Positions 7,388 through 32,000 of a stretch of 32,000 bases of DNA are shown in pieces. The notes under the pieces are model-generated. The model ran no database searches. It was given only the letters and a program-made list of their open reading frames with translations, and was not told the origin of the DNA. The DNA is from an uncultured archaeon (GTDB lineage Archaea; Iainarchaeota; Iainarchaeia; Iainarchaeales; CSSED10-239): the NCBI GenBank assembly GCA_964591795.1, contig CAZQEL010000001.1, forward strand, positions 30,001-62,000. Direction: 5' to 3'. Position 1 is the first letter of the stretch, and every line of letters starts with the position of its first letter. Position numbers and translations under genes: made by a program.

Positions 7388-7473
7388 ATTTTCTCTTTTC
7401 CTATATTTATTTAGTTTATAATAATATATAAAAACTAATGCTTTTTTTAAAAAATAATAATTTATAATTAAAG

Positions 7474-7546
7474 GGTCAAAACCGGGATTCGAACCCGGGC
7501 CAGGAGCTCCACAGGCTCCTATGCTAACCACTACACTACAATGACC
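7474..7546 (-). tRNA. tRNA-His (anticodon GUG) with genome-encoded G-1
   Basis: Reverse complement reads G-GTCATTGTAGTGTAGTGGTTAGCATAGGAGCCTGTGGAGCTCCTGGCCCGGGTTCGAATCCCGGTTTTGAC-C. Anticodon stem is GGAGC/GCTCC with loop CTGTGGA, giving GTG. T arm is CCGGG-TTCGAAT-CCCGG. The extra 5' G opposite C73 is the His identity element. The acceptor stem contains two U-U oppositions (see findings). Confidence 0.85.
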
Positions 7547-10645: not shown

Positions 10646-10915
10646 TTATAATCTTCCTTTAAATTCTTTACCAACTTTGAATGAAACTGTTTTACTTGCA
10701 GAAATTTTCATAGCTTTTCCAGTTTGAGGATTTCTACCCATTCTAGCAGCTCTCTTCTTAACTTTGAAAGTACCAAAACCAACTAATTGTAATTTACCTT
10801 CTTTTTTAACAATTACTTTCATAGCTTCTAAAGTTGTATTAATAAACTCTTCTGCTTTTGCTTTTGAGAAATCTGTTTTTTTAACAACAGCTTCAACTAA
10901 TGTTTTTTTATTCAT
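10646..10915 (-). CDS. HU-family (bacterial-type histone-like) DNA-binding protein
   Basis: 89 aa. MNKKTLVEAV...LQLVGFGTFKVKKRAARMGRNPQTGKAMKISASKTVSFKVGK aligns along its full length with my memory of E. coli HU, including the GFGTF...R.GRNPQTG arm. Confidence 0.92.
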   Translation of the reverse strand: MNKKTLVEAVVKKTDFSKAKAEEFINTTLEAMKVIVKKEGKLQLVGFGTFKVKKRAARMGRNPQTGKAMKISASKTVSFKVGKEFKGRL

Positions 10916-17800: not shown

Positions 17801-18215
17801 CTTTTTTAAAAAAATTACCTGTCTTTTTAAAAAAACCAACTTTATTAACATTACTTAAATTCTTTTTAATTTCAGTTTTTGGTTTTTCTTCTTTAACATT
17901 TAGTTTATTTGAAGAACTAGTTTTATTAACAAGTTCTTTTTTTAAATTATTTTTAGCAGAATTTGTACTATTAATTGATTTTGACAATTCACTTAAAACA
18001 TACTCTTTTGTATTAGCTAAAGATGCAACTTTTTTTAATGGAAGTTTATTATTTTTAATAATTTTTAAAACAAGATAACCTACGTTATCATTATACCCTT
18101 GTAACTTTATTGTTTCTTTAATTTCTTTTTCAGTAAAATTCATTGTTTTGTCTGATAGTAGACTATAAAGCTTTTCTGCTTCGATTTTATCTTGAGATTT
18201 TTTAAACAATGACAT
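11880..18215 (-). CDS. giant surface protein (2111 aa): cytoplasmic Lys-rich N-terminus, one TM anchor, beta-sandwich repeat stalk, conserved Cys-containing C-terminal module
   Basis: Uninterrupted 6.3-kb ORF. The TM segment FPSFILFLLILALLLYLILSGTL is at about aa 171-192. There are several carboxypeptidase-regulatory/transthyretin-like units, for example GVDVYDPAGVPLNGALVTFQ...NVFGEAIFKDL and VKNISGDALLGSDVTVYN...DIYGLGEFSL...TKEGY. N-x-S/T sequons are abundant. The C-terminal ~480 aa is homologous to the C-termini of the 2505-aa and 973-aa proteins. Confidence 0.9.
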   Translation of the reverse strand: MSLFKKSQDKIEAEKLYSLLSDKTMNFTEKEIKETIKLQGYNDNVGYLVLKIIKNNKLPLKKVASLANTKEYVLSELSKSINSTNSAKNNLKKELVNKTSSSNKLNVKEEKPKTEIKKNLSNVNKVGFFKKTGNFFKKGYFFFEDNYYKMIDGISKVIPVNKLTDRIDKVFPSFILFLLILALLLYLILSGTLSFSKSWTIGVDVYDPAGVPLNGALVTFQINDENISFLTTNVFGEAIFKDLKSKKQNVNLIVSKEHYTTLNHSFKLSKNSLRQTVTLLIDLDSPLLPVGEEEEREIMFVENNDILILNTTLNIVFSCTNNEKIPTPKNTLIANGRITVKTPAACGRLRVSVTSNKFSSITNKVIGSNNKVVLTRITSDIGKLGFSVKNISGDALLGSDVTVYNYSQSNFILPLDNKQTDIYGLGEFSLDPKQYLLTVTKEGYLTYPKKGPLTVFKEETINTSFVLFTRDDLINFDCTLPKYSNFCVAGVIDCNNEHLKPFLNINSDGICILGTTGYISVTLKDANTSEPVFGDITLESKLKDTNESYVFTEYIAEDTNYYSFNVINFYDYRVRIINTEINGYNQPDPVLVTSLDRNIIIPLEFSSELNSGKIGVNVKDNIQNISNARVYLYREVDNNFVLTNPVSKFTNQFGDVNFELQRAHKNYYAYAVHGIVDREGTSSTEELDVNAFLPLFVNLQDIPKILNLKVTPNINFDINFYDVEHNSVIDYVSVDVDSNIQYYFIGGVNRVYAVISTQGYTTYQTEVLTLVPDQEIFKEVSLTSLVACSDSKLELTGLYNKTGTRIVTNIDYNNNGLDDEYRLKFKYTSCFSDSEIKYLHLRAGNEIFIDDDYIYFVSDDILSDEIQIDRGYKFSGEHIPDFNITLFNQNYTTDQGYDYNGNKYKWFEVNVMDLSPNVLEFSANIKFKEAPVAPTDFYKLSYRSLATKYGEIYNFDPIQSISWNEVPIYPDGYFYSKTNKYQIPFNNLDYIYSKKIKDFNGTVLTPYVDGYSVSIETNYKYDIYYLYLKNLLRQGSIDQTSSYTNNNLEYASYGYLLDSGDPDGNMDPIVYYQTVINDYNYSINLIDANRGYNINTYTIFKPTGFFENTAYSEPVLSTDILNNFPIINTSLYSYYSDVNFVFEITSNLNNDIFIGQNNVSFKVVDNYNAPIENILIKYQVTGGEAISLGDTDAQGLLTDQNIYLPVEDMSKKINFYFIFTPEAGFINNTVVRSKTIESGYSILENNINLSTYFYRLNDSIIFGDVNLENYNILKQSTVVANLNDLTFTGASSVFDVNQIKSNLFTVNDLPKDINQVQTLVLTSLVLNDDISTGVDINESYTNHLKFNDDTTLLLDVNSNIVVQNLGSINYSASYPNPNKGVRYSDENEVYDIEIIKDINPSIVIDYNLSSDVNAVLKNIIVDSLPLFIDNSVFNDSINLNNQNILSSVLIPINFKFNDAYTGDYPTNNSAIVLTFNILLNGNDVNFTQTFNVKAYNSESIVNISHITWNSVEIFCISQDECSQSKIYSFNNNLNLYKVKLLTPVSLNPIDENLSVNNLSSELSLITTDITRSVTYNSNFSDLSLDETTGIENTLFNFKVLDILNSDFNKNVLADYTIFKLDPEITQSTIDFDYCIGVGGQNDGTDMFILGYCQDQTDSCKTGLEYLPKVFFNWGEEYEEGGWTNKCIGNNVSEMYEKYACDSLQMLISIFYKIQNCVEGPFYIKLMNDGISDNLLKDFIDYRDNDAFSQFSKFSKPNNSNLFTESSVNDGDLKITFDNNSTQKTFMPGIYKVDVYGNDNDYYQNSMDDTKIDIQLLFVKNLSSSELSAFHYMPFDGRLNQNGTRDGYGIQTNNYDPIIQIRSDSIVDLNYSLVNNPINTLAINNYNSLGNLNNIIDSEGYILDLKKFNDGQLQMTYSLSYPIPLYSYAACLLNSKLSYNLLHSGDNSLDPLIGSNFLKWTSNDIVFIDNLYSSDDIGRYILDTSTVTDNNISLTTMLYIPTDLDLSQFKFKTSQLSNSDFTKIFSKSNLIGNVEDITFKNSDHNLGNNLNNLKTIKGIFEFVKNEKACIHKSPQRTYIKWVDSEVNFTQNELDIIISNIPSDYICPVINNT

Positions 18216-18238: not shown

Positions 18239-20527
18239 TTATTTAAATATTGGAGTAAATGGAAAATCAAAACTTTTATTTCCAGTATCAGAAGTAATTG
18301 TTCCAACTAATCTATAATTTTGATAATAACAATAAATATCTTTTTCACTAAGATTCATTAAAGGATCATAATACCATTTTAAATTTGCAGGTTCTATTTT
18401 ATATTCATAAATTCCAAGTTTAGGATTTAACTCACCTATAATTATAAATTTATTAGTATACACCGGAAGTTCTTTTTTTAAAAAAGGATTATAATTTATA
18501 AATTTATTAAAATTAATATTATTTTTAGCATAATAAATATTTAAATCATTTGCATTAATTATACCTTCATTATTTGAATAAAGAGAATATGTTTTAGAAA
18601 ACTTAAGCTCAGTTGAAACTGGCATTATTTCATCAGTTAAATCATAATAATCACACAAAGAACATTCTTCATTCAAAGAAAATACACTAGGTATACTTTG
18701 AGAAATAAATGAACTAAAATCTTCTTTATTTGCAGAATTAATATTTATTTTTCCAGTATTATAATCGAAATTAGAATTTGGATTTTTTATATAACATCCA
18801 GAATTAATATTTATAGCTCTATTAGTTGTTGATATAATGGAATTATTATCTTCAGTTAAAGTTGAAATGGTTGAAACTTTTGATGGAAGATAACTACCAT
18901 TTTCTAAAACATTAATTTTTAAGTCAGAAGTATTTGCAGACACATTTTTTTTACTATTTAATATTAATTGTAACTTTTTAGATTTATTAATTAAGTAATC
19001 AATAAAAATATTTTGTGTATAACCAGGAATGCCGTCTACTCCATTATTTCCAACAACACCTTTTAAACCAGCTTTATTAGCTTCTAAATTTAAATTAAAA
19101 ATATTTGTGTTTTTTAAAATATCTACTTTGAAATTAGAATTATAACTTCCACCATTACCACCATTACCAACTTCACCAACCTCGTAATGATTATTTTTAG
19201 AACCACCATTATTTCCTTTACCAGTGAACGCATTAAAATTAAAAATACCATTATTATTTATTTGACTAAATTCATATTGTGGATTAATACAATCAAAACC
19301 ATCAGAACTCCATCCTACTTGACAAAAAAATATAGAACCACCAGCACCACCATCTCCACCTTTTGCATAATCACTAGCTCTACCACCATCAAAACCAGTG
19401 TTAGCACCCTTACCACCATTTCCTGCTAAAAGATTTACATTAAAATTATTATTATTTAATATTTTATTTATATAAAAAATAATATTTCCACCAGCACCAC
19501 CAAAACCACCAGGTCCAGGATGATGAGACCAGTACACAGTACAAGAAGTTCTTCCAGCATAAGATCCATCACCACCAAAACCACCATTTCCTGCAATTAA
19601 ATTTAAATCGAAATTCCCATTATTATCTAAATTATCTAAAATAAAAAATATATTTCCTGCAGGATTTGCATCAGATCCTTTTTGTCCATTACACATATAT
19701 GGAACTTGACCATTTTGACTATTTTGAGATTTTAAAGTTAAATCTAGCACACCATTATTTATAAGTGTATTTCCATTAAAATAAATACTTCCACTATATG
19801 GTGTATAAGGTAAATTTAATTCAGCACAAAAAGTTTGAGGTATATTCATATTAAAATTAAGTTTTGAATTTTTAAAAACATTTAATTGTTTAAATTTAAA
19901 AGTAATGTGATCATGAATATAATCATCAAAACCACTAGAACAAACAAATCTTGTTTTTGAAACCATATTAATTAAAGAAGTACCAGATATATTTACAATA
20001 GGAACATCCAAATCAAAAGTTGCAGAACCTAACTTATTATTATTATTCACAAAAATATCAATATCATGATTATTTGTATTTAAAGTATCAACTCCTGAAA
20101 GAGTAATATCTTTTGTATTATTTTTCATTTCAAAATTTAAATCAACATTTAAAACTAAATTTATTTTTTGATTAGTACAAGAAGATTGTTTAGTGAAAAC
20201 CAAATCAGAATAATAAAATATTTTTGATGGAGAAGGTATGTAAGATGTAATTGCTTGTTCAATACAGTCTCTATATTGCTCATAGGTTTCATAATAATTA
20301 CCAATTATATAATTAGTTTTACAAACAGATTCTGCATCTATAAATGCTGAAGTCTTATCAGTAGAATTAAAAAATGTAAAATAACACTCATCAGCAGTAG
20401 TACAACCTAAATCTACTTTAGTTAATTCAAATGGAGTATTTATAGAACATACTTCAGAAAAAACATATGATTGTATAAATAATAAAAAAACTATTAAAGT
20501 AATTGTTATTATTATTTTTTTAATCAT
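18239..20527 (-). CDS. secreted Cys- and Gly-rich repeat protein (762 aa), predicted beta-helix-like
   Basis: The signal peptide is MIKKIIITITLIVFLLFIQSYVFS. The central region has 4-5 degenerate ~45-55 aa units of the form GG(N/S)I(F/I)F...NN(G/N)xF(D/N)(L/V/F)N(L/A)xxG(N/K)GG... Examples are NNGNFDLNLIAGNGGFGGDG, NNNNFNVNLLAGNGGKGANTG, NNGIFNFNAFTGKGNNGG and NTNIFNLNLEANKAGLKG. Confidence 0.85.
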   Translation of the reverse strand: MIKKIIITITLIVFLLFIQSYVFSEVCSINTPFELTKVDLGCTTADECYFTFFNSTDKTSAFIDAESVCKTNYIIGNYYETYEQYRDCIEQAITSYIPSPSKIFYYSDLVFTKQSSCTNQKINLVLNVDLNFEMKNNTKDITLSGVDTLNTNNHDIDIFVNNNNKLGSATFDLDVPIVNISGTSLINMVSKTRFVCSSGFDDYIHDHITFKFKQLNVFKNSKLNFNMNIPQTFCAELNLPYTPYSGSIYFNGNTLINNGVLDLTLKSQNSQNGQVPYMCNGQKGSDANPAGNIFFILDNLDNNGNFDLNLIAGNGGFGGDGSYAGRTSCTVYWSHHPGPGGFGGAGGNIIFYINKILNNNNFNVNLLAGNGGKGANTGFDGGRASDYAKGGDGGAGGSIFFCQVGWSSDGFDCINPQYEFSQINNNGIFNFNAFTGKGNNGGSKNNHYEVGEVGNGGNGGSYNSNFKVDILKNTNIFNLNLEANKAGLKGVVGNNGVDGIPGYTQNIFIDYLINKSKKLQLILNSKKNVSANTSDLKINVLENGSYLPSKVSTISTLTEDNNSIISTTNRAININSGCYIKNPNSNFDYNTGKININSANKEDFSSFISQSIPSVFSLNEECSLCDYYDLTDEIMPVSTELKFSKTYSLYSNNEGIINANDLNIYYAKNNINFNKFINYNPFLKKELPVYTNKFIIIGELNPKLGIYEYKIEPANLKWYYDPLMNLSEKDIYCYYQNYRLVGTITSDTGNKSFDFPFTPIFK

Positions 20528-20556: not shown

Positions 20557-20931
20557 TTAAGATAATTTAAATAAAACATTAATGTTTTCATCAGAATATT
20601 CTATAGTTTGAAATTTAATAAAAAATTTGTGTAAATTATTATTTTGTTTAATTTTACTTGGAACTAGTATTTTAAAAATAACTAAGTTATTATTAAGCAC
20701 ACTAACATTTAAATCATAAATATCAGTAAAAACTGAATTATTAAATGTTTGAAATTTACCATTTGAAAAATTAGAAGAGTCTATTAAATTTAAAGGTATA
20801 CCATCATCTCCTTTTATAACCCCAAACACAAAAGGATTTACATATATTTCATCATCAAAACTATAACTAGCAGCAACTACAAATGAATAAAAAATTATTA
20901 TTGCAAAAAATAAATATAGAAATCTCTTCAT
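20557..20931 (-). CDS. small secreted protein (124 aa) inside the giant-protein cluster
   Basis: The N-terminal signal-like segment is MKRFLYLFFAIIIFYSFVVAASYS and the rest looks beta-rich. It is flanked at 29 and 71 nt by cluster genes on the same strand. No family recognised. Confidence 0.65.
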   Translation of the reverse strand: MKRFLYLFFAIIIFYSFVVAASYSFDDEIYVNPFVFGVIKGDDGIPLNLIDSSNFSNGKFQTFNNSVFTDIYDLNVSVLNNNLVIFKILVPSKIKQNNNLHKFFIKFQTIEYSDENINVLFKLS

Positions 20932-21002: not shown

Positions 21003-24000
21003 TTAACTACATTTTAAAGCATCACGTTCAGCTATAAATTCTTCAGGATAAATTTCAGCAGGGTTATAGAAAAACTCAGAAGAAGAACCATCTGTTGAAT
21101 TTAGAACACAAATCTGATTTTCTGCAATTAAATCAAACACACTCTTTATAGAATTAATACTAGAAACTGCAGTTTGATATCCTAATGAAACATTTGGACT
21201 AAAGTCAGTTCCATTTAATGAAAATTTAACACCAACATCTTGATCTGACTTATTCTCAAGAGTATATGTTTCTTTTTCAGGAGCATAGAAAATAGTTCTT
21301 AAATAAATTTCACCTGTTTTAATAACTTGTGGCCAATCTAAAATATAGGATGATTGAGGACCATTAAGTGATGCATATCTATCATAGTAAGCCATGTTAA
21401 ATATACTATTTCCTGAAAAGTCACAGCCAGAACCAACACCAGTCCATCTTAAAAGAGAAGATGAGTCTGTAAGTGTATTATCTGACTTATCTTTCAACCT
21501 ATAAAACACATTTAATGGATTAGTATTATTTTTTGTAACTTCCATTAAAATTGGCACAGCTTCACTTTTGCTTAAAATTAAATCAATATTATTTGCATTA
21601 TATTTAACACTTAAAATATTACCTCTAGTTTCAAGAGAAGAATTAATTCTATAAAAATCACTTGAATTAGTAATATTTATATTTCTTAATGCATTTGAAC
21701 CATTATCTAAATCTGATTTTACATTATCTCCATCAATATTAATTATATCTCCAGTATAACTTACACCATATCCTTGTCTATTATAACCTGAATTTGTTTG
21801 ACCAACAAATCCATTGAATGGTATTCTATAAAATACACTATCTGTTTCTGGTGATTGTAAAAATCTAAATGTTACATAAGTATTTAAATCTACTTGATCA
21901 GCAACATCTGTAAATCTCCAACTACTATCATTAAATAAAAAATCAATTTTAATTTTATATTTACCAGGACTTGTTAGATTCACATTATTTTTTTCGCTTG
22001 AATATTGTTTTATAAAATATAAATTATTCTTAAAAAGTTCAGATAAATAACCATTACTAAATACTTCTGGTGAAGACATAAAAGTATAAATTCCTGTTCC
22101 AGAACCATCTTCTTTAGATGCTAAACCACCATATGCAACATCAAAATCATTTATAAAATTTTGATTATAGTTATCTGTTATTAAATACGCGTCAAACTCT
22201 AAAAGTTTTTTAAAATCTATAATATCCTGTTGACTCCAACCATTTCCATTAACATTATCAGGATACATATTTTTATTAAACCATAAATCAAGATAACTAA
22301 TTCCATTATAATTAGCTGTAGTTGAAGGAACCTTACAATCTGTTACTGGTGCTTCATCATATATATCTAAAGACACTATTGATTCAAATTTATTATTTTG
22401 CATATCAACAGATTCACCAGTAAGATTAATATTTAAAGATAAATCATCACCAATTATTGGTGAATTTGAACTTTCAGTAAATTCTAAAACTATTTCTGAA
22501 AAAGTATCATCTTCAGAAATATTTAAAGTTACAGGTATTAAATTTAAAGCTTCAGTAAAACCAACTAAATCTCCATCAGCATTTCTATAATAAGCAGCTG
22601 TAGGATATTCATTATTTAATTTAGCAACTATATTTCCAATTTTTATACTTCCAGATCTATTGTCTAAATAAATTTTAGAAATAAATTTATTTTCTGCAGT
22701 ACTTAATTCAACAGAATCAATACCAACTTTAGATACTGAAACATTATTATCAGCATTAATAGGTTCTGCATTTTTAATGTAATAAAAACCATTTAAACTT
22801 TGAATTACTTGTTCTTGAGGACTTAAAGGATATAATACTGTTCTTTGTGATATGAATTCTTCAGCTTTATTTATTCTGTTTAAAACAACTTGAGTTAATT
22901 GAGTTGAATCACAATATTTTTCAGAACATCTATTAATATCTTGAACTGACCAATCCCAATCTAATAATACATTTGGAACTGCACCAGAACCAGTTTTACC
23001 AGTTTTACCAGTATCTGTAACACAATCTTGAACTACCAAATTATAATTTTGTGTTTCTTCTGGTTTAGTAATAAAAAATCCAAATCTATAGTTTCCAATC
23101 TTTTCAGAATTTGCAAATGCAGGATCTTGTATTTCAACTGAATCTTCAAGTGTTGGATTAAATTCATAGTTTTTAAAATAATATTTCTTTGAATCATTAT
23201 TAATGTGACTATATATGTTATCAGTAAAACTAAATTGTAATGGTTTTATTCCAGATTGCTCTGGCCATAATGTTTCATTAACTTTACAAGTATAAAACAT
23301 TTCAGTTTCAAGTTGTATTCTATTTCTAGTTGGTTTTGCACCATAACATTTAATTGATTGAGATAAAACTCCATCTTCAATTGTTGGATTAAATGAATTA
23401 TCACAATTTCTATTTTTTATTATTTGAGAATAATAATCTTCAATACTTGAATTAGGATTATTACATAAAACATAATCTGTTAAAGATAAATCAGCGTCTT
23501 TTGTAAGTCTATCTTTAATTTTATTATAAATTTTATCTGAATCTTGTGTTCTTGTAATTAAATCATTATAAGTATAATATCTAGCACCAGTAATATCAAA
23601 AATATTTAAATAAGAAGATTCATCGGATACATCATCTACAGTGATTATTTTTAAAAATTCACCATTAGAAAGTGTATACTTTTGAGGAACATCTAAATAT
23701 TTATTATTTAAAACTGGATATGCAAATTCATTTTTCCAAGAAGTTGCTGCCCAAGAAACTAAAACAATCACAGCTAAAGTAATCCAACCATAAACAGGAA
23801 TAGCAGCTAAAACTGCAGCAAATCCAACAGATCCAGCTGCAGTAGCACTAGCAACTGCAATTTCAAGCGCTGCAGCAGTAGCAATACTTAAACCAACCGC
23901 AGTAACAGTTGCTGCAGCTAAAACAGTTATACCAATTGCAGCAGCAACAGGCATAGCACCTTCATCAGTAGTACCCATAAATTCTAAATTTTCTAAGGAT

Positions 24001-27000
24001 TTATAATTCATTTTTTGGAAAGCATCATCTTGTTTATTAAAAGTTGATGACAAATAATCAGAAAAGGTAGATGTAACAGTAACTCCATTTTGAGCAATTT
24101 GAGCTTTATATTGTTCAACATCCTGAACTGTAGGAATAGAATTAACATAATCCCAAGGAGTCTGTTCTAAATTATTATTATATAATCTTACACTTTCAGA
24201 AACTTTAGTAGTATCTGAAATTTCAATAAAAGGATCCTCCATCCATAAACCACTAGAATCTTTTGCATTTATTTTTAATAAAGCATAAGCTGAAGTAACT
24301 TCACGTCCAATATTATTAACAACAGATATTTTATTGTTTAAAACATAAGCACCAGGAGCAATAGTTGAATCTTTTCTTTTAATTGAAACAGTTTTTTCTG
24401 AGTCTAAAAGACTAAAATTTAAAATACCATTTTCTTCATCAGTATTATCAATAGATAAATCTCTACAGGAATAATCATTTCCTTCACAAAGATCCATTTT
24501 TAATGTTGCTTTACCAAAACATTCGTTTTTAATAGTTAGATCTTTAGCTACAGTATCCTCAAGAACAAAAAGACCACCAGAATTAATTTTTTCTCCACCA
24601 TCATAATAGGATAAACATTGTGTTAAATCCATAATTGATATATTTGCTTTTAATAAAATATCATTAGAACCTTTATTTACAAAAGTTAAACCCTCTTCTG
24701 TTTCTACTTGAGCATTTAAATAAATATCAGTTTTTACTTCTGCAAATTTAGCACCATTTGTGTTAAATGCAATTTCAACAGTATATTCTTCTTCAGGTCT
24801 CATTTCATTAATTAAAATTCTATAATAATTTTCTGATAATTGTATTTGATTAGAAGCACCTGAACCAATTAATTTTAAGAAATAAATACCATATCTATCT
24901 CCATTAGATTTAATTTTTGCTTGAACATTCTTAATTGTTATAGGTAAATTTCCTTCTTTAGAGATACAAGTGTTTTTTATTTTTAAAGTTGTAGATTGGG
25001 TTGTTGTTGAAACAACTGTATTCCATTCACCAGCACTTTGAGTAACAACTAAACAATCATCTTCTAAAACACCGTTTCCAACAGATAATTTTACATTAAC
25101 AGGAATATTAAATAAATATTTTTGATTATTTAATAAATAAGTGGCAGTTAAAGCACCTAAAATATTTTCACTTACAGAATGTGATTGAGCACTTTCAGAA
25201 GGTGCAAATTTAATTAAAATTTCTTTAGATTCGTTTGCAGGTATTACAAAACCATCAGGTGTACTAATTATTTGATTATTAAGATAATTAACAGTTTGTA
25301 AAAGATTTAATAAATAGGATTTATTAAAAGAAACATCCTGTTCATTAAATTGATTTAAAATTAATGGATATGCAGTTTTATTTTTAAGTTCTAAAGTATA
25401 TATCTCCCCATCCATATTTGTCTTATGAATAAATACTTCTAATGGTGAATTTGAATTAATTATTTCAGAATTATTAAAAATATCAATAATATCTCTAGTA
25501 ATTGAAAATTCAACTGGATCTGCAAAATATTTAGATTTAATAGATTCAATTATAAAAGTTTCTCCTGGTCTTAAAGATGGAAGACTAATTGTAGCTTTTC
25601 CTTCTGCATCAGTTGTTCTACCAGTTGAAACTATAGTTGTTCCAGTTATTGTTTTTTGTAAAATATTAATATTTGCACTCTCAACAGCATTTCCAGTAGT
25701 ATCTTTAACAATTACGGTTAATGTAAATGGAACACCAGGTACAATATTTTTAGGTTCATAATCAACTATCATTTTATCAAGATCTGATACAACAAAGTTA
25801 ATTGGTAAAGTATAAATTACTGATTGTTCAGAAACAATTCTAGTTTGAAGTTTTGATTGTCCTAAAATTAATGGGAATAATTTTAAATTAAAATTTATAT
25901 TTGAAAACGGATTTAAATTATCCTTTAAAAGTTCATTTTCATAAAATGGAAGTTTAAAATTAGTTTCTCCAGTTGCAGTTTCGCCCACTGATGAAAATTC
26001 ACCTGTAACATCATATGATTTAATACCAACCATAGCTGTAGGATTACCTTCAGAATTAACATTAACTGCTGAAAGTCTAGCATCAGGATAATTATTAGGT
26101 GATGAGTTTGTTATTTGATATTCTAAAGTATAATCAGAGTTAACAAGCATTGGAATATTTTTATTTCCTCCAATATCATATCTTAATCCTTCTGAAACAT
26201 CAACATATTGTCCTGAGAAACAAAATGTAGTATTACAAAGACTTGTTGCTTCTACAAAATATTGTAATTGAGTATAATTTTGAGTCATGTAGTTTATAGA
26301 TGTAATTGATGATGTATAAAAGAAAGATACTTTATCATTAGTTTGTGCATTTCTAATTCTTACAGGAATTGTAATTTCATGAACTGATGCTGGAAAATCA
26401 TTTACTTGTATATTTACAAGTTTTGATTCTAAATAATTACTTGAATTTGAAAAAGGTTCACTCTCATAATAAACAGCTACACCTAAAGAGTTATTTTCAG
26501 ACATTATAAAAATAATATCATCACTAACATTTATTTCACTTCCAGCTCTAAGTGTAAAATTAAAATTTGTACTTGAAGATGGCATTATAATTTTATATTT
26601 TAAATAAAATACTTGATTATTTTTTAAAGATTCAACTTCTTGATAGTCAGTATTATATAAACCTAAATATTCAGTAACAACATCTTCAGTTGTAAGCGCT
26701 CTTTCTAAAATAATATTTTTAATAATAGTTTTACTTTTATAAATTCTAAACATTTCAGTAAAATAAGGTAAATAACCATCAGTTTCTATTTTTATGAAAA
26801 CTTTTTTATCTGCTTTTATTTGATTTTGCAAAGTACCATTAGCTGAAGCCATTGCAGTTCCTAAAACAGCACCTGTTTCTGAATAAAAAGTTACTGTTGA
26901 ATTACCAACTATTTCTTCTAATTTATTTTTTACATTTAAATTAATTGTTCCTTTTCCAATAATAACAGGAAGAGTAATATTTGTATCTGTTGGTGGTAAA

Positions 27001-28511
27001 TTATGATATTCAGAAGAAATTTCTTCAATATAAAGATTCTTTGTCTTAACTGTAAAGTTTAAATCTGGAATATTTTTAAAAACTGCATTTCCATTTTCAT
27101 CAGAAATACTAAAATCAAATCTAGGATCAATATATTGCCCATCAGCATCATATAACCAAGATTTAATACCAATAATTGGTTTATCATCTTCGTCTTTTAT
27201 TGAAACAATAATATTTGAAACATTACTTATAGTTATTTTTTCTAAATTAAAAGTATATATGTTTAATGAATTAGATACTGACATTAAATTTCCAGGAATG
27301 TACCCTTCTGCTGCTACTTTAAGTGAATAATTTTTATTAGTATCTACATTAAAAATAAAACCTTCATGAAGTTGTCTATCTTCAACATTTTGATTTCCAT
27401 CTAAAAGTAAAGTAACAATAGGATTTGTAGAAGCATCTAAAACAATACCTGTATCTCTATCTTTTACAAAAACAGTTATTTCATTTAAAATAATTTCTTG
27501 ATTTGTATCTGGATCAATAACAGGACTAATTCCATCTCCAGTATCAATCATATTAATAGTAATTTCAGACATTGCATTTTTTATAACAATTACATCTTCT
27601 TGTGATGCTAAATATCTATTTTGAACATCTGTAGCTTTAACAACATAATCACCAATAGGAATAGAATCAAAAGATCCAACCCCAAAGTTTGATTGAATTG
27701 TTTTTATTGAACTAACAGGATCATCAACTGAGAATATTTTTAAAGTAATTGAGTCTTCAATATAATACTCTCCACTCATTAAAGAAACATAAGCAGATCC
27801 AACTTCTAAAGAAATTTCTTTTGGACTTAATCTAATGATTGAATCAGACATTTTTATTGGAATACTTGTAGCATTATATTTATCACTTACTACATTTGCA
27901 TAAAGAGTTTTACAGCTTGAAGGAACTTCTAAAGACACAGAACCATCAACTGTTTCTATTGATGAAGGTGTAATTACATCTCCATTATCACAAATAATAG
28001 TTACACTTAAAGCATCTTTAATTTTTTGTTCAGTTAAAGCATCTTGAAAATATACAATTTTTGGAAAATTAACTGGAATATTTAAAAGACCGATTATAAA
28101 ATTAAAAGTTTGTCTATCAAAAATTAGTTCTTGTTCATAATAGTCATAACCTTCTTGTTCAACAATAAACAAATAAGAATTATTTTTATTTAAGGTGATT
28201 TTAAAAGAACCAGCAACATTTGTAGTATAATTATTTGTAGTTCCGTCTGATATGTTTCTAAGTTTAAAATCAAAATTACTTAAAATATTATTTTCATTAT
28301 CAGCAAGCCTTAAAGTTACATCAATGTTATTTGATTTTAATGAACCTAAACTTGAACCAAAAATTAAATAAAGTACTATTAAAATAATTAAAATGAATAA
28401 AAAAAAAGAAGTTAAAGGATACTTTTTATCTAAAGGACCTGTTATTTTCTTAATTGGAATTCTATTATCTATCCCTGTAAGAATATTTTGCCATGTCTCT
28501 TTAAAACTCAT
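21003..28511 (-). CDS. giant surface protein (about 2502 aa): N-terminal TM anchor, beta-sandwich/Ig-like stalk, internal Ala/Gly-rich hydrophobic island, conserved C-terminal module
   Basis: Uninterrupted 7.5-kb ORF. I place the start at the ATG at 28509-28511 (MSFKETW...). The track's GTG (28518-28520) lies inside a GGGTGAT Shine-Dalgarno at 28516-28522. The TM anchor is LTSFFLFILIILIVLYLIF. Repeated carboxypeptidase-regulatory/Ig-like units include IKDEDDKPIIGIKSWLYDADG...DENGNAVFKNIP and VKDTTGNAVESANINILQ...TDAEGKATISLP. A hydrophobic island lies at track aa 1521-1595. The C-terminal ~900 aa is homologous to the 973-aa protein. Confidence 0.9.
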   Translation of the reverse strand: MSFKETWQNILTGIDNRIPIKKITGPLDKKYPLTSFFLFILIILIVLYLIFGSSLGSLKSNNIDVTLRLADNENNILSNFDFKLRNISDGTTNNYTTNVAGSFKITLNKNNSYLFIVEQEGYDYYEQELIFDRQTFNFIIGLLNIPVNFPKIVYFQDALTEQKIKDALSVTIICDNGDVITPSSIETVDGSVSLEVPSSCKTLYANVVSDKYNATSIPIKMSDSIIRLSPKEISLEVGSAYVSLMSGEYYIEDSITLKIFSVDDPVSSIKTIQSNFGVGSFDSIPIGDYVVKATDVQNRYLASQEDVIVIKNAMSEITINMIDTGDGISPVIDPDTNQEIILNEITVFVKDRDTGIVLDASTNPIVTLLLDGNQNVEDRQLHEGFIFNVDTNKNYSLKVAAEGYIPGNLMSVSNSLNIYTFNLEKITISNVSNIIVSIKDEDDKPIIGIKSWLYDADGQYIDPRFDFSISDENGNAVFKNIPDLNFTVKTKNLYIEEISSEYHNLPPTDTNITLPVIIGKGTINLNVKNKLEEIVGNSTVTFYSETGAVLGTAMASANGTLQNQIKADKKVFIKIETDGYLPYFTEMFRIYKSKTIIKNIILERALTTEDVVTEYLGLYNTDYQEVESLKNNQVFYLKYKIIMPSSSTNFNFTLRAGSEINVSDDIIFIMSENNSLGVAVYYESEPFSNSSNYLESKLVNIQVNDFPASVHEITIPVRIRNAQTNDKVSFFYTSSITSINYMTQNYTQLQYFVEATSLCNTTFCFSGQYVDVSEGLRYDIGGNKNIPMLVNSDYTLEYQITNSSPNNYPDARLSAVNVNSEGNPTAMVGIKSYDVTGEFSSVGETATGETNFKLPFYENELLKDNLNPFSNINFNLKLFPLILGQSKLQTRIVSEQSVIYTLPINFVVSDLDKMIVDYEPKNIVPGVPFTLTVIVKDTTGNAVESANINILQKTITGTTIVSTGRTTDAEGKATISLPSLRPGETFIIESIKSKYFADPVEFSITRDIIDIFNNSEIINSNSPLEVFIHKTNMDGEIYTLELKNKTAYPLILNQFNEQDVSFNKSYLLNLLQTVNYLNNQIISTPDGFVIPANESKEILIKFAPSESAQSHSVSENILGALTATYLLNNQKYLFNIPVNVKLSVGNGVLEDDCLVVTQSAGEWNTVVSTTTQSTTLKIKNTCISKEGNLPITIKNVQAKIKSNGDRYGIYFLKLIGSGASNQIQLSENYYRILINEMRPEEEYTVEIAFNTNGAKFAEVKTDIYLNAQVETEEGLTFVNKGSNDILLKANISIMDLTQCLSYYDGGEKINSGGLFVLEDTVAKDLTIKNECFGKATLKMDLCEGNDYSCRDLSIDNTDEENGILNFSLLDSEKTVSIKRKDSTIAPGAYVLNNKISVVNNIGREVTSAYALLKINAKDSSGLWMEDPFIEISDTTKVSESVRLYNNNLEQTPWDYVNSIPTVQDVEQYKAQIAQNGVTVTSTFSDYLSSTFNKQDDAFQKMNYKSLENLEFMGTTDEGAMPVAAAIGITVLAAATVTAVGLSIATAAALEIAVASATAAGSVGFAAVLAAIPVYGWITLAVIVLVSWAATSWKNEFAYPVLNNKYLDVPQKYTLSNGEFLKIITVDDVSDESSYLNIFDITGARYYTYNDLITRTQDSDKIYNKIKDRLTKDADLSLTDYVLCNNPNSSIEDYYSQIIKNRNCDNSFNPTIEDGVLSQSIKCYGAKPTRNRIQLETEMFYTCKVNETLWPEQSGIKPLQFSFTDNIYSHINNDSKKYYFKNYEFNPTLEDSVEIQDPAFANSEKIGNYRFGFFITKPEETQNYNLVVQDCVTDTGKTGKTGSGAVPNVLLDWDWSVQDINRCSEKYCDSTQLTQVVLNRINKAEEFISQRTVLYPLSPQEQVIQSLNGFYYIKNAEPINADNNVSVSKVGIDSVELSTAENKFISKIYLDNRSGSIKIGNIVAKLNNEYPTAAYYRNADGDLVGFTEALNLIPVTLNISEDDTFSEIVLEFTESSNSPIIGDDLSLNINLTGESVDMQNNKFESIVSLDIYDEAPVTDCKVPSTTANYNGISYLDLWFNKNMYPDNVNGNGWSQQDIIDFKKLLEFDAYLITDNYNQNFINDFDVAYGGLASKEDGSGTGIYTFMSSPEVFSNGYLSELFKNNLYFIKQYSSEKNNVNLTSPGKYKIKIDFLFNDSSWRFTDVADQVDLNTYVTFRFLQSPETDSVFYRIPFNGFVGQTNSGYNRQGYGVSYTGDIINIDGDNVKSDLDNGSNALRNINITNSSDFYRINSSLETRGNILSVKYNANNIDLILSKSEAVPILMEVTKNNTNPLNVFYRLKDKSDNTLTDSSSLLRWTGVGSGCDFSGNSIFNMAYYDRYASLNGPQSSYILDWPQVIKTGEIYLRTIFYAPEKETYTLENKSDQDVGVKFSLNGTDFSPNVSLGYQTAVSSINSIKSVFDLIAENQICVLNSTDGSSSEFFYNPAEIYPEEFIAERDALKCS

Positions 28512-28515
28512 AAAA

Positions 28516-28522
28516 ATCACCC
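28516..28522 (-). promoter_or_regulatory. Shine-Dalgarno site (GGGTGAT) of the 2505-aa gene
   Basis: The transcribed strand reads GGGTGAT-TTTT-ATG. This matches the archaeal or bacterial anti-SD complement GGAGGTGATC. Confidence 0.6.
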
Positions 28523-28533
28523 TGTGTTAATAA

Positions 28534-31455
28534 TTAATTTATTATACATCCATCGTTGTTTTCAATCCATATAGTTTGTGATTCACTTGATAGATCTCCA
28601 CCGAATAATGGTTCTGATACTGCAATAGGATTATAATATATTTTTAATGAATTACCAGTGTAATCAATACATGCTTTCTTTTCATTAACAAGATTAAAAA
28701 TCTCACTTACAAACTTAATATCATTTTCTAAAATATTATTAAGTATAACAGAGTTTGATCCACTTGTATTATCTTTTGTAAAAAACAATGCTGAATCATC
28801 AGCTGAATCTTGATATAATACACTTTTACCATTACCTGTTTTAAAATTACTTGGAGTGTATAAAACTGTTCTTAAATAAACATTTCCATGTCTTGTAATA
28901 TTCTTTGCTTCCCATTCAACACCATAAGACACTGCTTGACTTGGAGTAATTGGTGCAAGTCTTGATGAAAGTGCATGTACATCTGGTCTTTCAAGATAAG
29001 CTTCTTGTACTGATATTCCTGAAAAGTCAAGACAATTACCAATACCTGTCCATGGAACTAAAGTTCCTGAAGTAAGTGCTGGTTCTCCACCTTGATTTTG
29101 TGGTCCACCAATATCAAGTTTATAGAAACTATAAGCATCATTTGCTTGATTAGATACTTTTAAAGCAACTGGAGTTGCTCTTGATGGTATAAAATAAAGT
29201 TCTGGATTTGTTTTATTTTCAGATAAATTAATACTAAGTAACATACCTCTTGTTGAACCGTTATTTAAGAAAGAAAATTCATTTGGAAGACGTCCATATT
29301 CCTTTACACTTACAGTATTAATTGTATTTGATTGTGTAAAAGGTTCTGTTCTTAAATATTGACCAGTTGCAGTTTCAACAATTGTTACAATATCTCCAGT
29401 AAAATCAATACCATAACCTTGTCTTGCGTTATCTGAATCAACACCTACAAGTCCATCAAATGGCATATAATAAAGAGGAGAATCTCTTTCTGGTGAAATT
29501 TCTCTAGATAAAACTATATCTACATTTCCTGTAATATTGCCAGCATCATCAAACAATCTCCATTGATCGTCAAATGTTACATCTAATAAAACATTATATC
29601 TTCCAGGACCTTGTAAAATAAGTCTTCCTGATTCTGAATCCATTGTTGATTTAAAATTAAAATTATTAGATATAAAATATTTATAATATTTTTCAATATA
29701 ATCTGTTGGAGCTGCAGTTATTGTAAATCTATAATATCTATCAAAATCTGATTTAAAATCATCAGAATATCCATCTTTCATTAAATAAGATCTAAACTCA
29801 ACTAATGAAGTATCAATCTTTGTGTTCTTTGAATATAAATTTAAATTCCTTGAAATCTTTGGTAAATTACAAACTTCTGAATTTGGAGTAAATATGTTTT
29901 CTAAAATATTATCCAATTCTGAATCTACAATACTATATGGGGTATCCAATATTAAAACTGCAGAAACTTTTAAACTTGTAGTATCATCTAAAATTATTCC
30001 AACATCAAATGATTCATTTCCAACATAAACTTCATTATTAAAATCATTTATATTTAAAGTAATTAATTTTGATTCAACTTGAACATTATTTTTATAAACT
30101 GTTAAACTTAAATGACCATATGGAGAAGGAGATATATTTTTATCAGCATTATTAAAACCACCTTCTATTCTATAATCAACAGCAATATATCTATCATCAT
30201 AACTTGAATTTAAAATAGTTAGACCTAAGTTATCTGTTGCAGAAACTAAATTTTGAGTAACACCTGGTGTTGGACAAGTGAAATCTCCTTTATTTGTTTG
30301 AACAAAATCATCTATTTCTTTTAATTTATTTAAAAGTTCAATTGAGAACTGTGTTGAATCACAAAAGATTGATTGTTTATCAGCTTCTCCTGTTAAATCA
30401 GCATCACACCAATTAAGAGTATTTACATACTTATCTGAAATTAATTGTACCTCTTGATTATATCCAAAATCCCAATTAAATGCAATCTTTGGTAATATTT
30501 CTGAACCTGTTTGTCCTAAAAGCATTCCACTTTCAGTAACACAATTAACTTGATCAAGATTAGTATTATCAAGCACATCTCTTGTATAAGAATTAAATAT
30601 TAATTTAAATGGTTCAGTTACAATTTCATCTTTTCTATTATCATTTATTATTTTTAAAAAATTATCATTTCCACTTAAAACTCTACTAATTTTTATTAAT
30701 GGAGTACCTGTTGAAAAAGGTGAAGCTAAGAAAGTTAACCAATCTCCACTTAAAAATTTACCATTAAATATATCGTTTGGAGTTAAACTATAACTAATAT
30801 CATTTATATATGTTGATTTAGGATATTTAACAACAAAATTTCTATATTCGTATTCGTTTTCAATAGTTTTTGCAGGATCTTCAAATAATATTTCTCTTTT
30901 TTGAATATCTAAAACATCATTATTTGAATCTAAAACTTGTGTTAATTTTGTTTTGTCAGCAAGTCTAAATGTTGGTGAATTGCTACCATTATCTATTTCT
31001 ATTAAATTTTTAACTTTTATAAACTGTGCATCAAGAACATTTTTATCTGTTAATAAAATATTTTCATATGGTAAATAATCGGGTATATCCTTTGCATCCA
31101 ATTTATTAACATATACAAAATCTTCAACATGTTCAATTGTATAATCTTTAATGTCATTTGAAATATTTACTTTATCTCTATCAAGCGCAAAATTAATTTC
31201 AACTTTTGATAATGAACTAAAAGTTTTAAATGCTGAAAAAGCACCTACTAAAATTCCATGAACAACAGGACTTAATCCAAATACTTTGGTTAAAAGACCA
31301 CCTCCAGAACTAAATAGTGAATCTACTAATCCCTTTCCAACAGCTTCTGTAGCATCATCATTGCCGGGTGCAGCTACAGGCACGCTAATAAAAGAAAGCA
31401 TTAGAGTTATCATTAATATTATTCCTAGGAATTTAGTTTTATTTTCATATTTCAT
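28534..31455 (-). CDS. secreted 973-aa protein: signal peptide, Gly-rich hydrophobic segment, then a full copy of the module forming the C-terminal third of the 2505-aa protein
   Basis: The signal peptide is MKYENKTKFLGIILMITLMLSFISVPVAA. The hydrophobic Gly-rich segment AVGKGLVDSLFSSGGGLLTKVFGLSPVVHGILVGAFSAFKTF spans aa 38-79. Blocks shared with the 2505-aa C-terminus include CVTESG..G.TGS..P...FNWDF, FCDSTQ, YLMKDGYSDDFKSDFD, PGRYNV, YYMPFDG...RQGYGI.FTGDI, WTGIGNCLDFSG, YLRTVLYTP and YYNP. An AGGTG Shine-Dalgarno lies 8 nt upstream of the ATG. Confidence 0.9.
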   Translation of the reverse strand: MKYENKTKFLGIILMITLMLSFISVPVAAPGNDDATEAVGKGLVDSLFSSGGGLLTKVFGLSPVVHGILVGAFSAFKTFSSLSKVEINFALDRDKVNISNDIKDYTIEHVEDFVYVNKLDAKDIPDYLPYENILLTDKNVLDAQFIKVKNLIEIDNGSNSPTFRLADKTKLTQVLDSNNDVLDIQKREILFEDPAKTIENEYEYRNFVVKYPKSTYINDISYSLTPNDIFNGKFLSGDWLTFLASPFSTGTPLIKISRVLSGNDNFLKIINDNRKDEIVTEPFKLIFNSYTRDVLDNTNLDQVNCVTESGMLLGQTGSEILPKIAFNWDFGYNQEVQLISDKYVNTLNWCDADLTGEADKQSIFCDSTQFSIELLNKLKEIDDFVQTNKGDFTCPTPGVTQNLVSATDNLGLTILNSSYDDRYIAVDYRIEGGFNNADKNISPSPYGHLSLTVYKNNVQVESKLITLNINDFNNEVYVGNESFDVGIILDDTTSLKVSAVLILDTPYSIVDSELDNILENIFTPNSEVCNLPKISRNLNLYSKNTKIDTSLVEFRSYLMKDGYSDDFKSDFDRYYRFTITAAPTDYIEKYYKYFISNNFNFKSTMDSESGRLILQGPGRYNVLLDVTFDDQWRLFDDAGNITGNVDIVLSREISPERDSPLYYMPFDGLVGVDSDNARQGYGIDFTGDIVTIVETATGQYLRTEPFTQSNTINTVSVKEYGRLPNEFSFLNNGSTRGMLLSINLSENKTNPELYFIPSRATPVALKVSNQANDAYSFYKLDIGGPQNQGGEPALTSGTLVPWTGIGNCLDFSGISVQEAYLERPDVHALSSRLAPITPSQAVSYGVEWEAKNITRHGNVYLRTVLYTPSNFKTGNGKSVLYQDSADDSALFFTKDNTSGSNSVILNNILENDIKFVSEIFNLVNEKKACIDYTGNSLKIYYNPIAVSEPLFGGDLSSESQTIWIENNDGCIIN

Positions 31456-31502: not shown

Positions 31503-32000
31503 TTATTTATATGAACAACATGGTTCATAAACCCCATGACTTGTATTTGAACATGCATTAAAAGTTGCAAACACTTTTCCAGTTTCAATTTGACAACCTC
31601 TTGCTCTATCAGTTCCATCACATCTATAGACATATTTATCTCCATTTGGTTTAATACTAAATGAAGCATCACAAGTCTCACTTGTGTTATCCAGAACTTC
31701 TAATAAATTTAAAGCAACAGCAGCTTCATTTTTATAAACGTCTAAATTATCTTGTAATTTAGATGATGTATTAAATTTTGTTGCAGCATTGTTATATGCC
31801 CCCATAGCACTATTCCAAGAATTTTCAGTATATTCTGACGCACTATAATTAGTGCCTGAAAAAGACATACTTTCTGCGCTTGCAAGAACTATTTCAACAG
31901 CATCAAAAGTCTGAGCAGCAGGGGATTTACTCACAAGTTTTGCAATCAAACTATTTAATTCAGTATTCTCTGCAACAGTAATACTTTCTTTATCTTTTAA
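31503..32000 (-). CDS. C-terminal part of a larger protein with a six-Cys C-terminal domain (gene continues beyond the right window edge)
   Basis: The track ORF (31503..31949) begins at a TTG. The same frame stays open for the remaining 17 codons to position 32000 (LKDKESITVAENTELNSLIAKLV...), so the real start is probably outside the window. The last ~55 aa contain six Cys (ETCDASF...YRCDG...RGCQIE...NACSN...EPCCSYK). It ends 47 nt upstream of the 973-aa gene. Confidence 0.65.
   Translation of the reverse strand, partial: LKDKESITVAENTELNSLIAKLVSKSPAAQTFDAVEIVLASAESMSFSGTNYSASEYTENSWNSAMGAYNNAATKFNTSSKLQDNLDVYKNEAAVALNLLEVLDNTSETCDASFSIKPNGDKYVYRCDGTDRARGCQIETGKVFATFNACSNTSHGVYEPCCSYK

Follow-up and report, generated by a model that had tools for sequence, protein, structure and literature searches.

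A secreted 973-residue protein of a Forterrea-like archaeon as the probable split-off head of a giant surface protein

DPANN archaea rely on contact with other cells, and to our knowledge the proteins that make this contact are almost unknown. We analyzed a stretch of 32,000 nucleotides (positions 30,001 to 62,000 of contig CAZQEL010000001.1; hereafter the window) from an uncultured archaeon, which a scan of GTDB genomes identified as a Forterrea-like member of the Iainarchaeota/Diapherotrites (DPANN). The window has a GC content of ~25%, and all its genes lie on the minus strand, to which all window coordinates below refer. It encodes several giant proteins and, among them, a 973-amino-acid (aa) protein (28534–31455) situated directly upstream of a 2505-aa giant (21003–28520). 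The open reading frame (ORF) coordinates of both were correct in the original prediction, which regarded the 973-aa protein as a free-standing copy of the C-terminal third of its 2505-aa neighbor. Our analysis points to another parent. It is rather likely that the 973-aa gene is the split-off head of a different class of giant, type A, that its stalk is encoded by the upstream 1862-aa gene, and that its product is a secreted head subunit.

The full-length members of the family to which these proteins belong appear to follow one plan: a short cytoplasmic N-terminus, one membrane anchor, and a ~1450-aa stalk of immunoglobulin (Ig)-like beta-sandwich domains would be followed by a variable linker, a Gly-rich or hydrophobic helix segment, a linker domain of ~100–210 aa, and a ~690-aa disulfide-bonded head. 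Read from sequence, the architecture is that of a membrane-anchored rod presenting a distal disulfide-stabilized domain. The extracellular location is indicated by the signal peptide or anchor, the Ig-like stalk domains, and the eight conserved cysteines of the head.

The closest known systems are functional analogues of these proteins, not relatives. The SPEARE and other giant proteins of nanohaloarchaea (PMC6642349; PMC10266531) likewise belong to host-dependent DPANN archaea and are membrane-anchored proteins of very large size, most of which lies outside the cytoplasm; they have adhesion-type domains, are thought to mediate host contact, and proteomics hints at their processing. However, their domains are of serine protease, laminin-G, toxin-like, and restriction-endonuclease type, and most of them are anchored C-terminally. 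The proteins described here are anchored at the N-terminus instead, and their Ig-like stalk leads through an internal segment of hydrophobic or Gly-rich character to a C-terminal head that is unique to them. There was no sequence or domain relationship between the two groups, and none of the giants in the window gave a Pfam or NCBIfam match to SPEARE-type domains (serine protease, laminin-G/adhesion, or type III restriction endonuclease). Giant1–5 of Apilactobacillus kunkeei (PMC12863079) are similar in being consecutive paralogous giant surface genes that take up a large share of a small genome, with a long repetitive stalk and a common terminal binding domain. They are bacterial, however, and the domain by which they bind, a beta-solenoid related to those of serine-rich-repeat adhesins, is N-terminal, whereas the corresponding domain here is C-terminal and has no known relative. 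Bacterial Ig-repeat adhesins (Big_1/invasin–intimin, SpaA, and CarboxypepD_reg) also present a distal binding domain on a beta-sandwich rod, and Pfam matches of this kind were found in the stalk of the 2505-aa giant (CarboxypepD_reg, Big_1, and SpaA; 1.5e-9 to 4.7e-9). Unlike these adhesins, the archaeal proteins have an N-terminal transmembrane (TM) anchor with neither an outer-membrane barrel nor an LPXTG motif, and their distal domain is no C-type lectin or known adhesin tip.

Two further resemblances are more local. CARDB (PDB ID: 3idu) and GH2 beta-sandwich domains gave local Foldseek matches (probability 1.0, ~125 columns) that fit the middle insert of the head, but this insert is small and dispensable, and the match says nothing on the head core. 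With class I viral fusion glycoproteins, the 973-aa protein has in common a Gly-rich, moderately hydrophobic segment near the mature N-terminus that is internal in unsplit relatives, a likeness of layout only; in contrast to them, it has no heptad-repeat coiled coils and no C-terminal TM anchor. Foldseek matched its model to no fusion protein in PDB or BFVD, and neither the whole protein nor the core gave a PDB match to the fusexin/HAP2 class II fold, including archaeal Fsx1. What is unusual in the present family is a head without detectable relatives, an internal hydrophobic or Gly-zipper element, and recurrent fission at one joint.

In a BLASTP comparison of the 973-aa protein with the 2505-aa giant, aa 537–946 matched aa 2091–2490 (29% identity, E = 4e-38) and aa 297–385 matched aa 1825–1890 (E = 2e-7); nothing N-terminal of these two matches was significant. 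When sets of orthologs were compared by hhalign (12 of the 973-aa protein and 5 of the giant from syntenic loci), a single collinear alignment of ~690 aa was obtained between aa 280–954 and aa 1808–2498 (E = 9.6e-55). The homology with the C-terminus of the giant was real and collinear, as predicted, but it is limited to ~690 aa, not ~950 aa, because aa 1–279 of the 973-aa protein and aa 1500–1807 of the giant showed no significant similarity (hhalign E = 0.35; Smith–Waterman z = 0.56). Similarity ended at aa 280 and 1808, respectively, with none detectable upstream, so that the proposal of a homologous region starting right after the Gly/Ala-rich segments (aa 38–79 and aa 1521–1595) did not hold. 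A 27-residue pairing quoted for the two proteins scored 21, a chance level equaled by 22% of shuffles and by 243 other windows within the giant, and it contradicted the profile alignment, in which IGNYRFGFFITKPEE of the giant is aligned to TEPFKLIFNSYTRD of the 973-aa protein (aa 280–293). Hydrophobic segments do exist in both proteins and end ~200–215 aa ahead of the head start, but they are unlike in kind: that of the giant is a 74-aa island of transmembrane grade, and that of the 973-aa protein a weakly hydrophobic Gly-zipper helix. A modular design of stalk, hydrophobic or Gly-rich segment, linker, and head is common to both, as had been proposed; upstream of the head, only this layout, and seemingly no sequence, is common to them.

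We then compared the 973-aa head with the classes of giants encoded elsewhere. Type A denotes the class of giants found in distant Iainarchaeota and is the upstream member of the adjacent pair of head-bearing giants in the fetched loci. The profile of the 973-aa protein and its close homologs (alignment A1) matched type A giants with E-values of 1e-98 to 1e-83, whereas the giant beside the 973-aa gene in its own clade reached only 1e-35 to 1e-56. With a hidden Markov model (HMM) of the 973 family, type A heads scored 310 bits (272–353), type B heads 262 bits, and heads of the 2505 clade 188 bits (148–215). Reciprocally, the type A HMM gave 398 bits with 973 heads and 278 bits with the 2505 clade, and the type B HMM slightly preferred the 2505 clade (358 versus 347 bits for 973 heads). 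The mean identity of the 973 head to the 2505 clade was likewise low (26%, against 30%). A neighbor-joining (NJ) tree joined the 973 heads to type A, and the 2505 clade to type B, with the support of 71 of 100 bootstraps. This value is probably conservative, because the extreme AT bias common to the 973 and 2505 sequences would favor their grouping together.

The region upstream of the head gave the same assignment. Aligned by hhalign with the pre-head region of type A giants, aa 46–222 of the 973-aa protein matched with E = 1.8e-5 (1.8e-8 with the first head strand included) in an alignment that spans the Gly-rich motif, VEIDF..DKVNIS, and QKREILFED..YEYRNFV.KYPKSTY. As in type A giants, the region ahead of the head in the 973-aa protein contains first the Gly-zipper motif (..G..NP...G.L.G...G....Y) and then the E.L.F.N...YR.L.V linker domain. 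Profile comparison of aa 1–279 of the 973-aa protein with the pre-head regions of the 2505 clade (aa 1595–1807 included) and of type B giants was, in contrast, not significant (E = 0.2–0.36 for the 2505 clade). Reciprocal HMM scores, the NJ tree, and the N-terminal Gly motif all place the 973-aa protein with type A and not as a copy of the downstream giant's C-terminal third. By these sequence comparisons, the heads of the 973-aa protein and the 2505-aa giant would be ancient paralogs, not recent copies.

The gene that runs off the high-coordinate end of the window (3′ end at 31503–32000) was seen complete in the contig L001, which encodes the identical 973-aa protein; the gene encodes 1862 aa, and another giant of at least 2307 aa lies upstream of it. 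Residues 1–~1500 of the 1862-aa protein are collinear with aa 1–~1450 of type A giants (380–430 bits, as against 264 bits or less for other giants). The protein keeps the Gly-rich helix at the end of the stalk, GZ1 (KWQMAFVSFLRDGLLSGTLSALLQG), after which it has a variable tail and no head. The order in unsplit type A giants is GZ1, a variable low-complexity or Cys-rich linker, a second Gly-rich segment (GZ2), the linker domain, and the head; in the window lineage, the 1862-aa protein carries GZ1, and GZ2 follows a new signal peptide in the 973-aa protein. Together, the two proteins have 2835 aa, and unsplit type A giants mostly have 2200–2800 aa (one has 2056 aa). The two genes are separated by a spacer of 47 nt, a departure from the single polypeptide of other type A giants.

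Gene order was conserved across the related genomes (L003–L014). Of the 13 informative loci, all have a stalk-only gene upstream of the head gene; the two genes are adjacent in 12 of them and separated by two ORFs in the remaining one (L012). Downstream of the 973-aa ortholog, an intact giant of 2392–2525 aa, the size range of the 2505-aa orthologs, was present wherever the sequence reached, with two extra genes between them in one locus (L014). A survey of related genomes, as the original prediction had advised, yielded both split and unsplit forms; the 2505-aa gene was intact with its own head wherever a 973-aa ortholog occurred. The stalks of the 1862-aa and 2505-aa proteins were homologous over 1431 aa (E = 1.5e-20), which implies that whole stalk-plus-head genes were duplicated and makes a fused ancestor with later fission parsimonious. 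We therefore propose that a type A giant was cut inside the variable linker to give a stalk-only gene (1862 aa) and a head gene (973 aa), that the head gene would have gained its own signal peptide on splitting, and that the downstream 2505-aa gene would be a different, older paralog of type B that was left intact. Fission, one of the events proposed earlier, would be the right kind of event, but its partner would be the upstream 1862-aa stalk gene and not the downstream 2505-aa giant.

Similar splits were found in other lineages. In the locus L078 (47% GC), the order is a stalk-only gene of 1840 aa, a spacer of 16 nt, a gene for a 983-aa protein, and a type B giant of 2392 aa. The second of these three genes encodes a signal peptide, a Cys-rich piece, the Gly motif, and the head, and this head scored 803 bits with the type A HMM and showed 41–45% identity to unsplit giants of 2401–2651 aa but 28% to the 973-aa protein. 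Because this head is closer to unsplit giants than to the 973-aa protein, the sequences indicate that the L078 split is an independent fission at a slightly different point of the same linker. In L079, another free-standing head has type A affinity and a signal peptide, which probably makes L079 a third split lineage. In L012 (15–12871), the Cys-rich stalk tail is encoded separately, as a 279-aa protein that has a signal peptide of its own (matching aa 1755–1860 of the 1862-aa protein, E = 3e-10), a further fragmentation of the linker region; a 1325-aa secreted ORF also lies between stalk and head and did not match any of the cluster proteins of the window. Apparent split giants in L039 and L032 were discarded as assembly gaps (runs of X), and L069 was discounted as a fission for want of a signal peptide.

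The 973-aa protein has 12 close homologs of 962–1023 aa, which make up A1, and full-length matches in 10 representative clusters; Candidatus Forterrea multitransposorum, whose genome is complete, encodes an ortholog with 64% identity. Its first 29 residues form a Sec-type signal peptide (KFLGIILMITLMLSFISVPVAA|PG; 31369–31455) with a hydrophobic segment at aa 6–31 (Kyte–Doolittle hydropathy, KD, 2.46). The position of the signal peptide is conserved across the 973 family with A-x-A-like ends, from which the cleavage site may be placed as indicated. Since a signal peptide is present, the protein is predicted to be exported, and the Gly-rich segment would lie close to its mature N-terminus; on both points the original prediction was supported. 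This segment, the Gly-zipper amphipathic GZ2 (aa 42–82, LLTKVFGLSPVVHGILVGAFSAFKTFSSL; 31210–31332), contains five residues invariant in the 973 family (G60, H66, G67, G71, and S74) and matches the internal segment of unsplit type A giants (L056, independent E = 4.6e-4); an HMM of the Gly motif built from giants alone found members of the 973 family at 1e-7 to 2e-4. GZ2 is weakly hydrophobic (KD 1.75; below 1.6 in most family members), and AlphaFold2 (AF2) predicted a helix at aa 64–82 with a low predicted local distance difference test score (pLDDT). Before heads in general, the segment takes the form of a Gly-zipper helix in type A and the 973-aa protein and of a 30–90-aa island of transmembrane grade in type B. 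The linker domain follows (aa 83–279, including QKREILFED...YEYRNFVVKYPKSTY; 30619–31209), which hhalign aligned to the pre-module region of type A giants and which has a pLDDT of ~30–75.

The head consists of three parts. Sub-module 1 (aa 280–397; 30265–30618; pLDDT 89–97), which includes the shorter BLASTP match to the giant and the start of the hhalign alignment, has a start strand FKLIFNS, Cys-rich loops (C305, C350, and C365), and a long helix at aa 367–391 ending at C394. Sub-module 2 (aa 398–525; 29881–30264) is an Ig/CARDB-like beta-sandwich insert with AF2 strands at aa 410–522, and it is absent from the head of a 2111-aa giant further along the window. The beta-rich core (aa 526–973; 28537–29880), defined by the longer BLASTP match and the AF2 core model, contains the motifs LMKDGYSxDFxxDFD and PLYYMPFDGLVG...RQGYG as well as C529, C808, C929, and C970. 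At the C-terminus (...NDGCIIN), the hydrophobicity scan detected no hydrophobic segment, and there was no sortase or archaeosortase sorting signal (LPXTG or PGF-CTERM).

The 973-aa protein has eight cysteines, each of them located in the head and conserved in the family (C305, C350, C365, C394, C529, C808, C929, and C970). These cysteines and the motifs DGYSxDFxxDFD and PFYYMPFDGxVG...RQGYG were invariant or nearly so in alignments A1, A2, and A3, and D561, G618, Y620, P665, R678, and Y681 were invariant across 51 diverse sequences. AF2 modeling with the 51-sequence alignment gave a pLDDT mostly above 90 for aa 300–973 and of 90.2 for a core-only model (aa 535–973); the predicted secondary structure is mainly beta with one 25-residue helix. 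Searches of the 973-aa protein and its head against Pfam, NCBIfam, and PDB sequences gave no match. Foldseek with the whole model found a local CARDB match (3idu, E = 4.5e-4, probability 1.0, ~127 columns) and Ig-like matches, which most plausibly belong to the modeled beta-sandwich insert at aa ~398–525, the search output being without query coordinates. There was no global match of the whole model in PDB or BFVD, the other hits being jelly-roll matches at noise level, and the core-only model had no structural match in PDB (best E = 0.09).

An exhaustive HMM search with A1 matched 589 representative clusters, 302 of them at E < 1e-30. Full-length matches were restricted to proteins of ~960–1090 aa; the remaining ones covered profile positions ~255–966 and were mostly C-terminal in proteins of 2200–3250 aa; among the shorter proteins that matched are fragments at contig ends and a few free-standing heads. 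Two homology searches limited by a word pre-filter added nothing to this set: the C-terminal third of the 2505-aa giant retrieved a single fragment, and alignment A2 retrieved known members of the 973 family. The giants ending in a head number several hundred, have 2000–3250 aa, and occur in tandem arrays. Among GTDB genomes, 139 related stretches were found, nearly all in Iainarchaeota/Diapherotrites, and in all inspected cases the head-bearing giants were from Iainarchaeota; the 70 genome loci contained 137 ORFs with the head module, typically as 2–3 giants in tandem. Literature searches found no description of the family except a mention of “large extracellular proteins” in the Forterrea genome paper. 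The 2111-aa giant of the window (11880–18215) bears a shorter head (aa ~1628–2111; 11883–13334) without the beta-sandwich insert and without a hydrophobic island, its only hydrophobic segment in the scan being the N-terminal TM; BLASTP matched aa 315–379 and 558–725 of the 973-aa protein to its aa 1660–1714 and 1725–1890 (E = 0.01 and 8e-8). The ~2300-aa giants upstream of the stalk gene (first ORF of L004–L010) gave no significant match to the head profile, and they end in the terminal pattern of the heads, ..VF.EI....VCFN.......LWHNP.., which suggests a highly degenerate head.

As for how the parts may work together, the exported head would sit at the distal end of the apparatus and bind a ligand on a partner or host cell, while being tied non-covalently to the membrane-anchored stalk. 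The most plausible tie would be GZ2 packing against GZ1 of the 1862-aa stalk or against the hydrophobic island of the neighboring giant. In the Forterrea genome paper, host dependence was inferred, lipid, nucleotide, and most central metabolic pathways were lacking, and the “large extracellular proteins” were proposed to mediate interaction with other organisms (PMC5905446). A bolder and quite doubtful idea is that the Gly-rich or hydrophobic segment ahead of the heads is a membrane-active element that, once freed at an N-terminus by fission or proteolysis, inserts into the host membrane, the giants forming a DPANN-specific contact or cytoplasmic-bridge apparatus around a head whose fold would be new.

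Several points weigh against the proposal of a type A head split from the 1862-aa stalk, or against the function suggested for it. The phylogeny of the heads is moderately supported, with 28 of 100 NJ bootstraps placing the 973 heads with the 2505 clade, and it was obtained by a simple NJ method from sequences that are highly divergent and biased in composition (25% GC). Taken alone, the stalk of the 2505-aa giant has diverged too far to be assigned to type B, BLAST scores being mixed. The direction of change, fission over fusion, is a matter of parsimony. The re-association of head and stalk through Gly-zipper helices is conjectural, GZ2 being of low AF2 confidence, and binding of a ligand or contact with a host is suggested for the head by analogy. 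With no relative of the head in Pfam, NCBIfam, PDB sequences, or Foldseek, this role is drawn from architecture and analogy.

Among the other explanations, the one that survives best concerns proteolysis. It holds that intact giants, the 2505-aa protein among them, are cut by a protease immediately ahead of the hydrophobic or Gly-rich segment, releasing a fragment like the 973-aa protein. The features of the 2505-aa giant are as follows. From the ORF ends, the spacer between it and the 973-aa gene is 13 nt, as had been predicted, but the actual start is most likely ATG 28511 (MSFKETW...), which is preceded by GGGTGA and used by all orthologs, giving a 2502-aa product and a likely spacer of 22 nt. 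The hydrophobicity scan found one N-terminal membrane anchor per giant (aa 32–63 in this one; 28332–28427; KD 3.05), and this anchor is conserved in all giants. The 2505-aa giant has a Gly/Ala-rich hydrophobic island (aa 1521–1594; 23739–23960) with a KD of up to 2.44 over 74 aa, and its head, paralogous to that of the 973-aa protein, occupies aa 1808–2505 (21006–23099) and keeps seven of the eight conserved cysteines. The equivalent of C394 is lost at aa ~1890–1900, where the protein has RTVLYPLSP and the ortholog consensus is v.cP, and an odd number of conserved head cysteines remains.

In favor of cleavage, natural fissions have occurred at least twice at this linker, ahead of the Gly-rich segment, and for the nanohaloarchaeal giant SPEARE there is proteomic evidence that extracellular and membrane parts separate (PMC6642349). 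Moreover, TG[FLYMIVW] is over-represented upstream of GZ2, being present in 34 of 50 unsplit type A giants against 15% expected (p = 3e-17), within an 80-aa stretch whose end lies ~25 aa short of the Gly motif. The motif takes the form (P)xTG[FLY] followed by hydrophobic residues, as in PVTGFAILFQ, ATGFVVLQ, and SITGLQFF (loci L017–L077 and P0024–P0155), and may be a cleavage or sorting site or a plain domain-edge strand; a sortase-like reading was set aside, the motif being internal and literature searches having found no support. However, TG[FLY] was absent from the proteins of the window, and no conserved motif was found ahead of the island in the 2505 clade. The island itself is present but variable among the 2505 orthologs, and the 2392-aa ortholog of L007 (12971–20149), 59% identical, has none at the equivalent position, so this clade would appear able to dispense with the island or to replace it. 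In other orders, type B giants have comparable islands 120–250 aa ahead of the head, and those in L018, L028, L034, L046, L054–L056, L064, and others have conserved Cys flanks (C.W.EA before and G[ED]DPC..T..L.DYVINL after) and often C.PC within the hydrophobic stretch; the 2505 clade of the window lacks all these Cys features. The conserved cysteines around the type B island (C.W.EA ... DPC) suggest a tied hairpin, not a new N-terminus. Cleavage of the intact giants is unlikely, though it is the least unlikely of these explanations.

Somewhat less credible is the view that the 973-aa protein, once released, acts as a soluble effector (a toxin, enzyme, or decoy) independently of any stalk, with the giants as anchored versions. 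It has a signal peptide and no strong membrane anchor, the pairing of one anchored with one soluble version fits the architecture, and the invariant cluster of D561, R678, Y681, and Y620 could be an active or binding site. Against this, no similarity to any enzyme or toxin family or fold was found in Pfam, NCBIfam, or Foldseek. The Gly-zipper segment, internal in unsplit giants, is strictly kept, and the stalk-only gene is invariably co-located upstream; from these two facts we argue that the head still works with the stalk.

Less probable again is fusion, by which separate stalk and head genes would be ancestral and the unsplit type A giants of other Iainarchaeota would have been fused later. 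Two points would suit this order of events: the Forterrea-like clade may branch deeply in the phylum, and at least three lineages have heads that are separate and carry signal peptides. However, the other paralogs (type B and the 2111-aa type) are single genes with both parts homologous to type A, which implies that duplication copied a fused gene. The split head of L078 is nested among unsplit giants at the 41–45% identity given above, and the break points differ, L078 keeping a Cys-rich piece and an ITGL motif that the 973 family is without, as independent fissions predict.

Least of all would the 973-aa gene be a partial duplicate or fission product of the C-terminal third of the downstream 2505-aa giant: although the genes are adjacent, their heads collinear over ~690 aa, each with a hydrophobic segment ~200 aa ahead, and their clades joined in the 28 bootstraps mentioned, the 973 head is least like its neighbor's clade by HMM score (188 bits against 310 for type A giants of other orders and 262 for type B) and identity, its N-terminal 280 aa match type A (E = 1.8e-5) and not the 2505 clade, the 2505-aa gene retains its head in every genome having a 973-aa ortholog, and every head gene has a head-less type A stalk gene upstream, as its immediate neighbor in 12 of 13 loci.

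From the high-coordinate end, the window contains the 3′ end of the 1862-aa giant, the 973-aa ORF, the 2505-aa ORF, two small ORFs, and the 2111-aa ORF. The two small ORFs, between the 2505-aa and 2111-aa giants, encode a 124-aa secreted protein (20557–20931) and a 762-aa secreted protein with long Gly-rich repeats (GNGGxGGxG...; 18239–20527); neither had a family match, and counterparts (~120–130 aa and ~750–835 aa) occur at the same position in L004–L007. Beyond the 2111-aa ORF lie genes for two small membrane proteins, HU, two serpins, tRNA-His and HisRS, a methyltransferase, an archaeal-type AlaRS, and a phospholipase D (PLD)-family protein. The HU protein (10646–10915; PF00216, E = 5e-29) is a DNA-binding protein of bacterial type in an archaeal genome. 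The serpins are tandem paralogs (7925–9190 and 9221–10492; Pfam Serpin, E = 1e-108 and 4e-113), each with an N-terminal hydrophobic anchor, within ~1.4 kb of the giant-protein cluster; membrane-tethered protease inhibitors beside surface giants could bear on the processing question. The tRNA-His(GTG) gene (7473–7545) is directly upstream of the HisRS gene (6086–7531), whose ORF, if the mechanical GTG start is taken, runs through the tRNA and yields a GC-rich MVSIGACGAPGPGSNPG extension; the true start is probably internal, at MVEKMILETAKGF. The PLD-family protein (467–1600) has two domains (PLDc_2, E = 6.5e-41) and an N-terminal membrane anchor, and it may be relevant to the scavenging of host lipids, the organism being reported to lack lipid synthesis.

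The present analysis corrects the evolutionary reading of the locus, in that the neighbor of the 973-aa gene is an old paralog and not its parent; this correction is solid, and the functional reading is one that we infer. It also defines a large uncharacterized family of giant surface proteins, comprising several hundred sequence clusters, in which the same joint, between the stalk and the Gly-rich helix ahead of the head, has been cut at least twice. Such recurrent cuts suggest that the head together with its helix is an autonomous functional unit, and the 973-aa protein is a naturally soluble form of it that is tractable for structural, ligand, and membrane-binding work.

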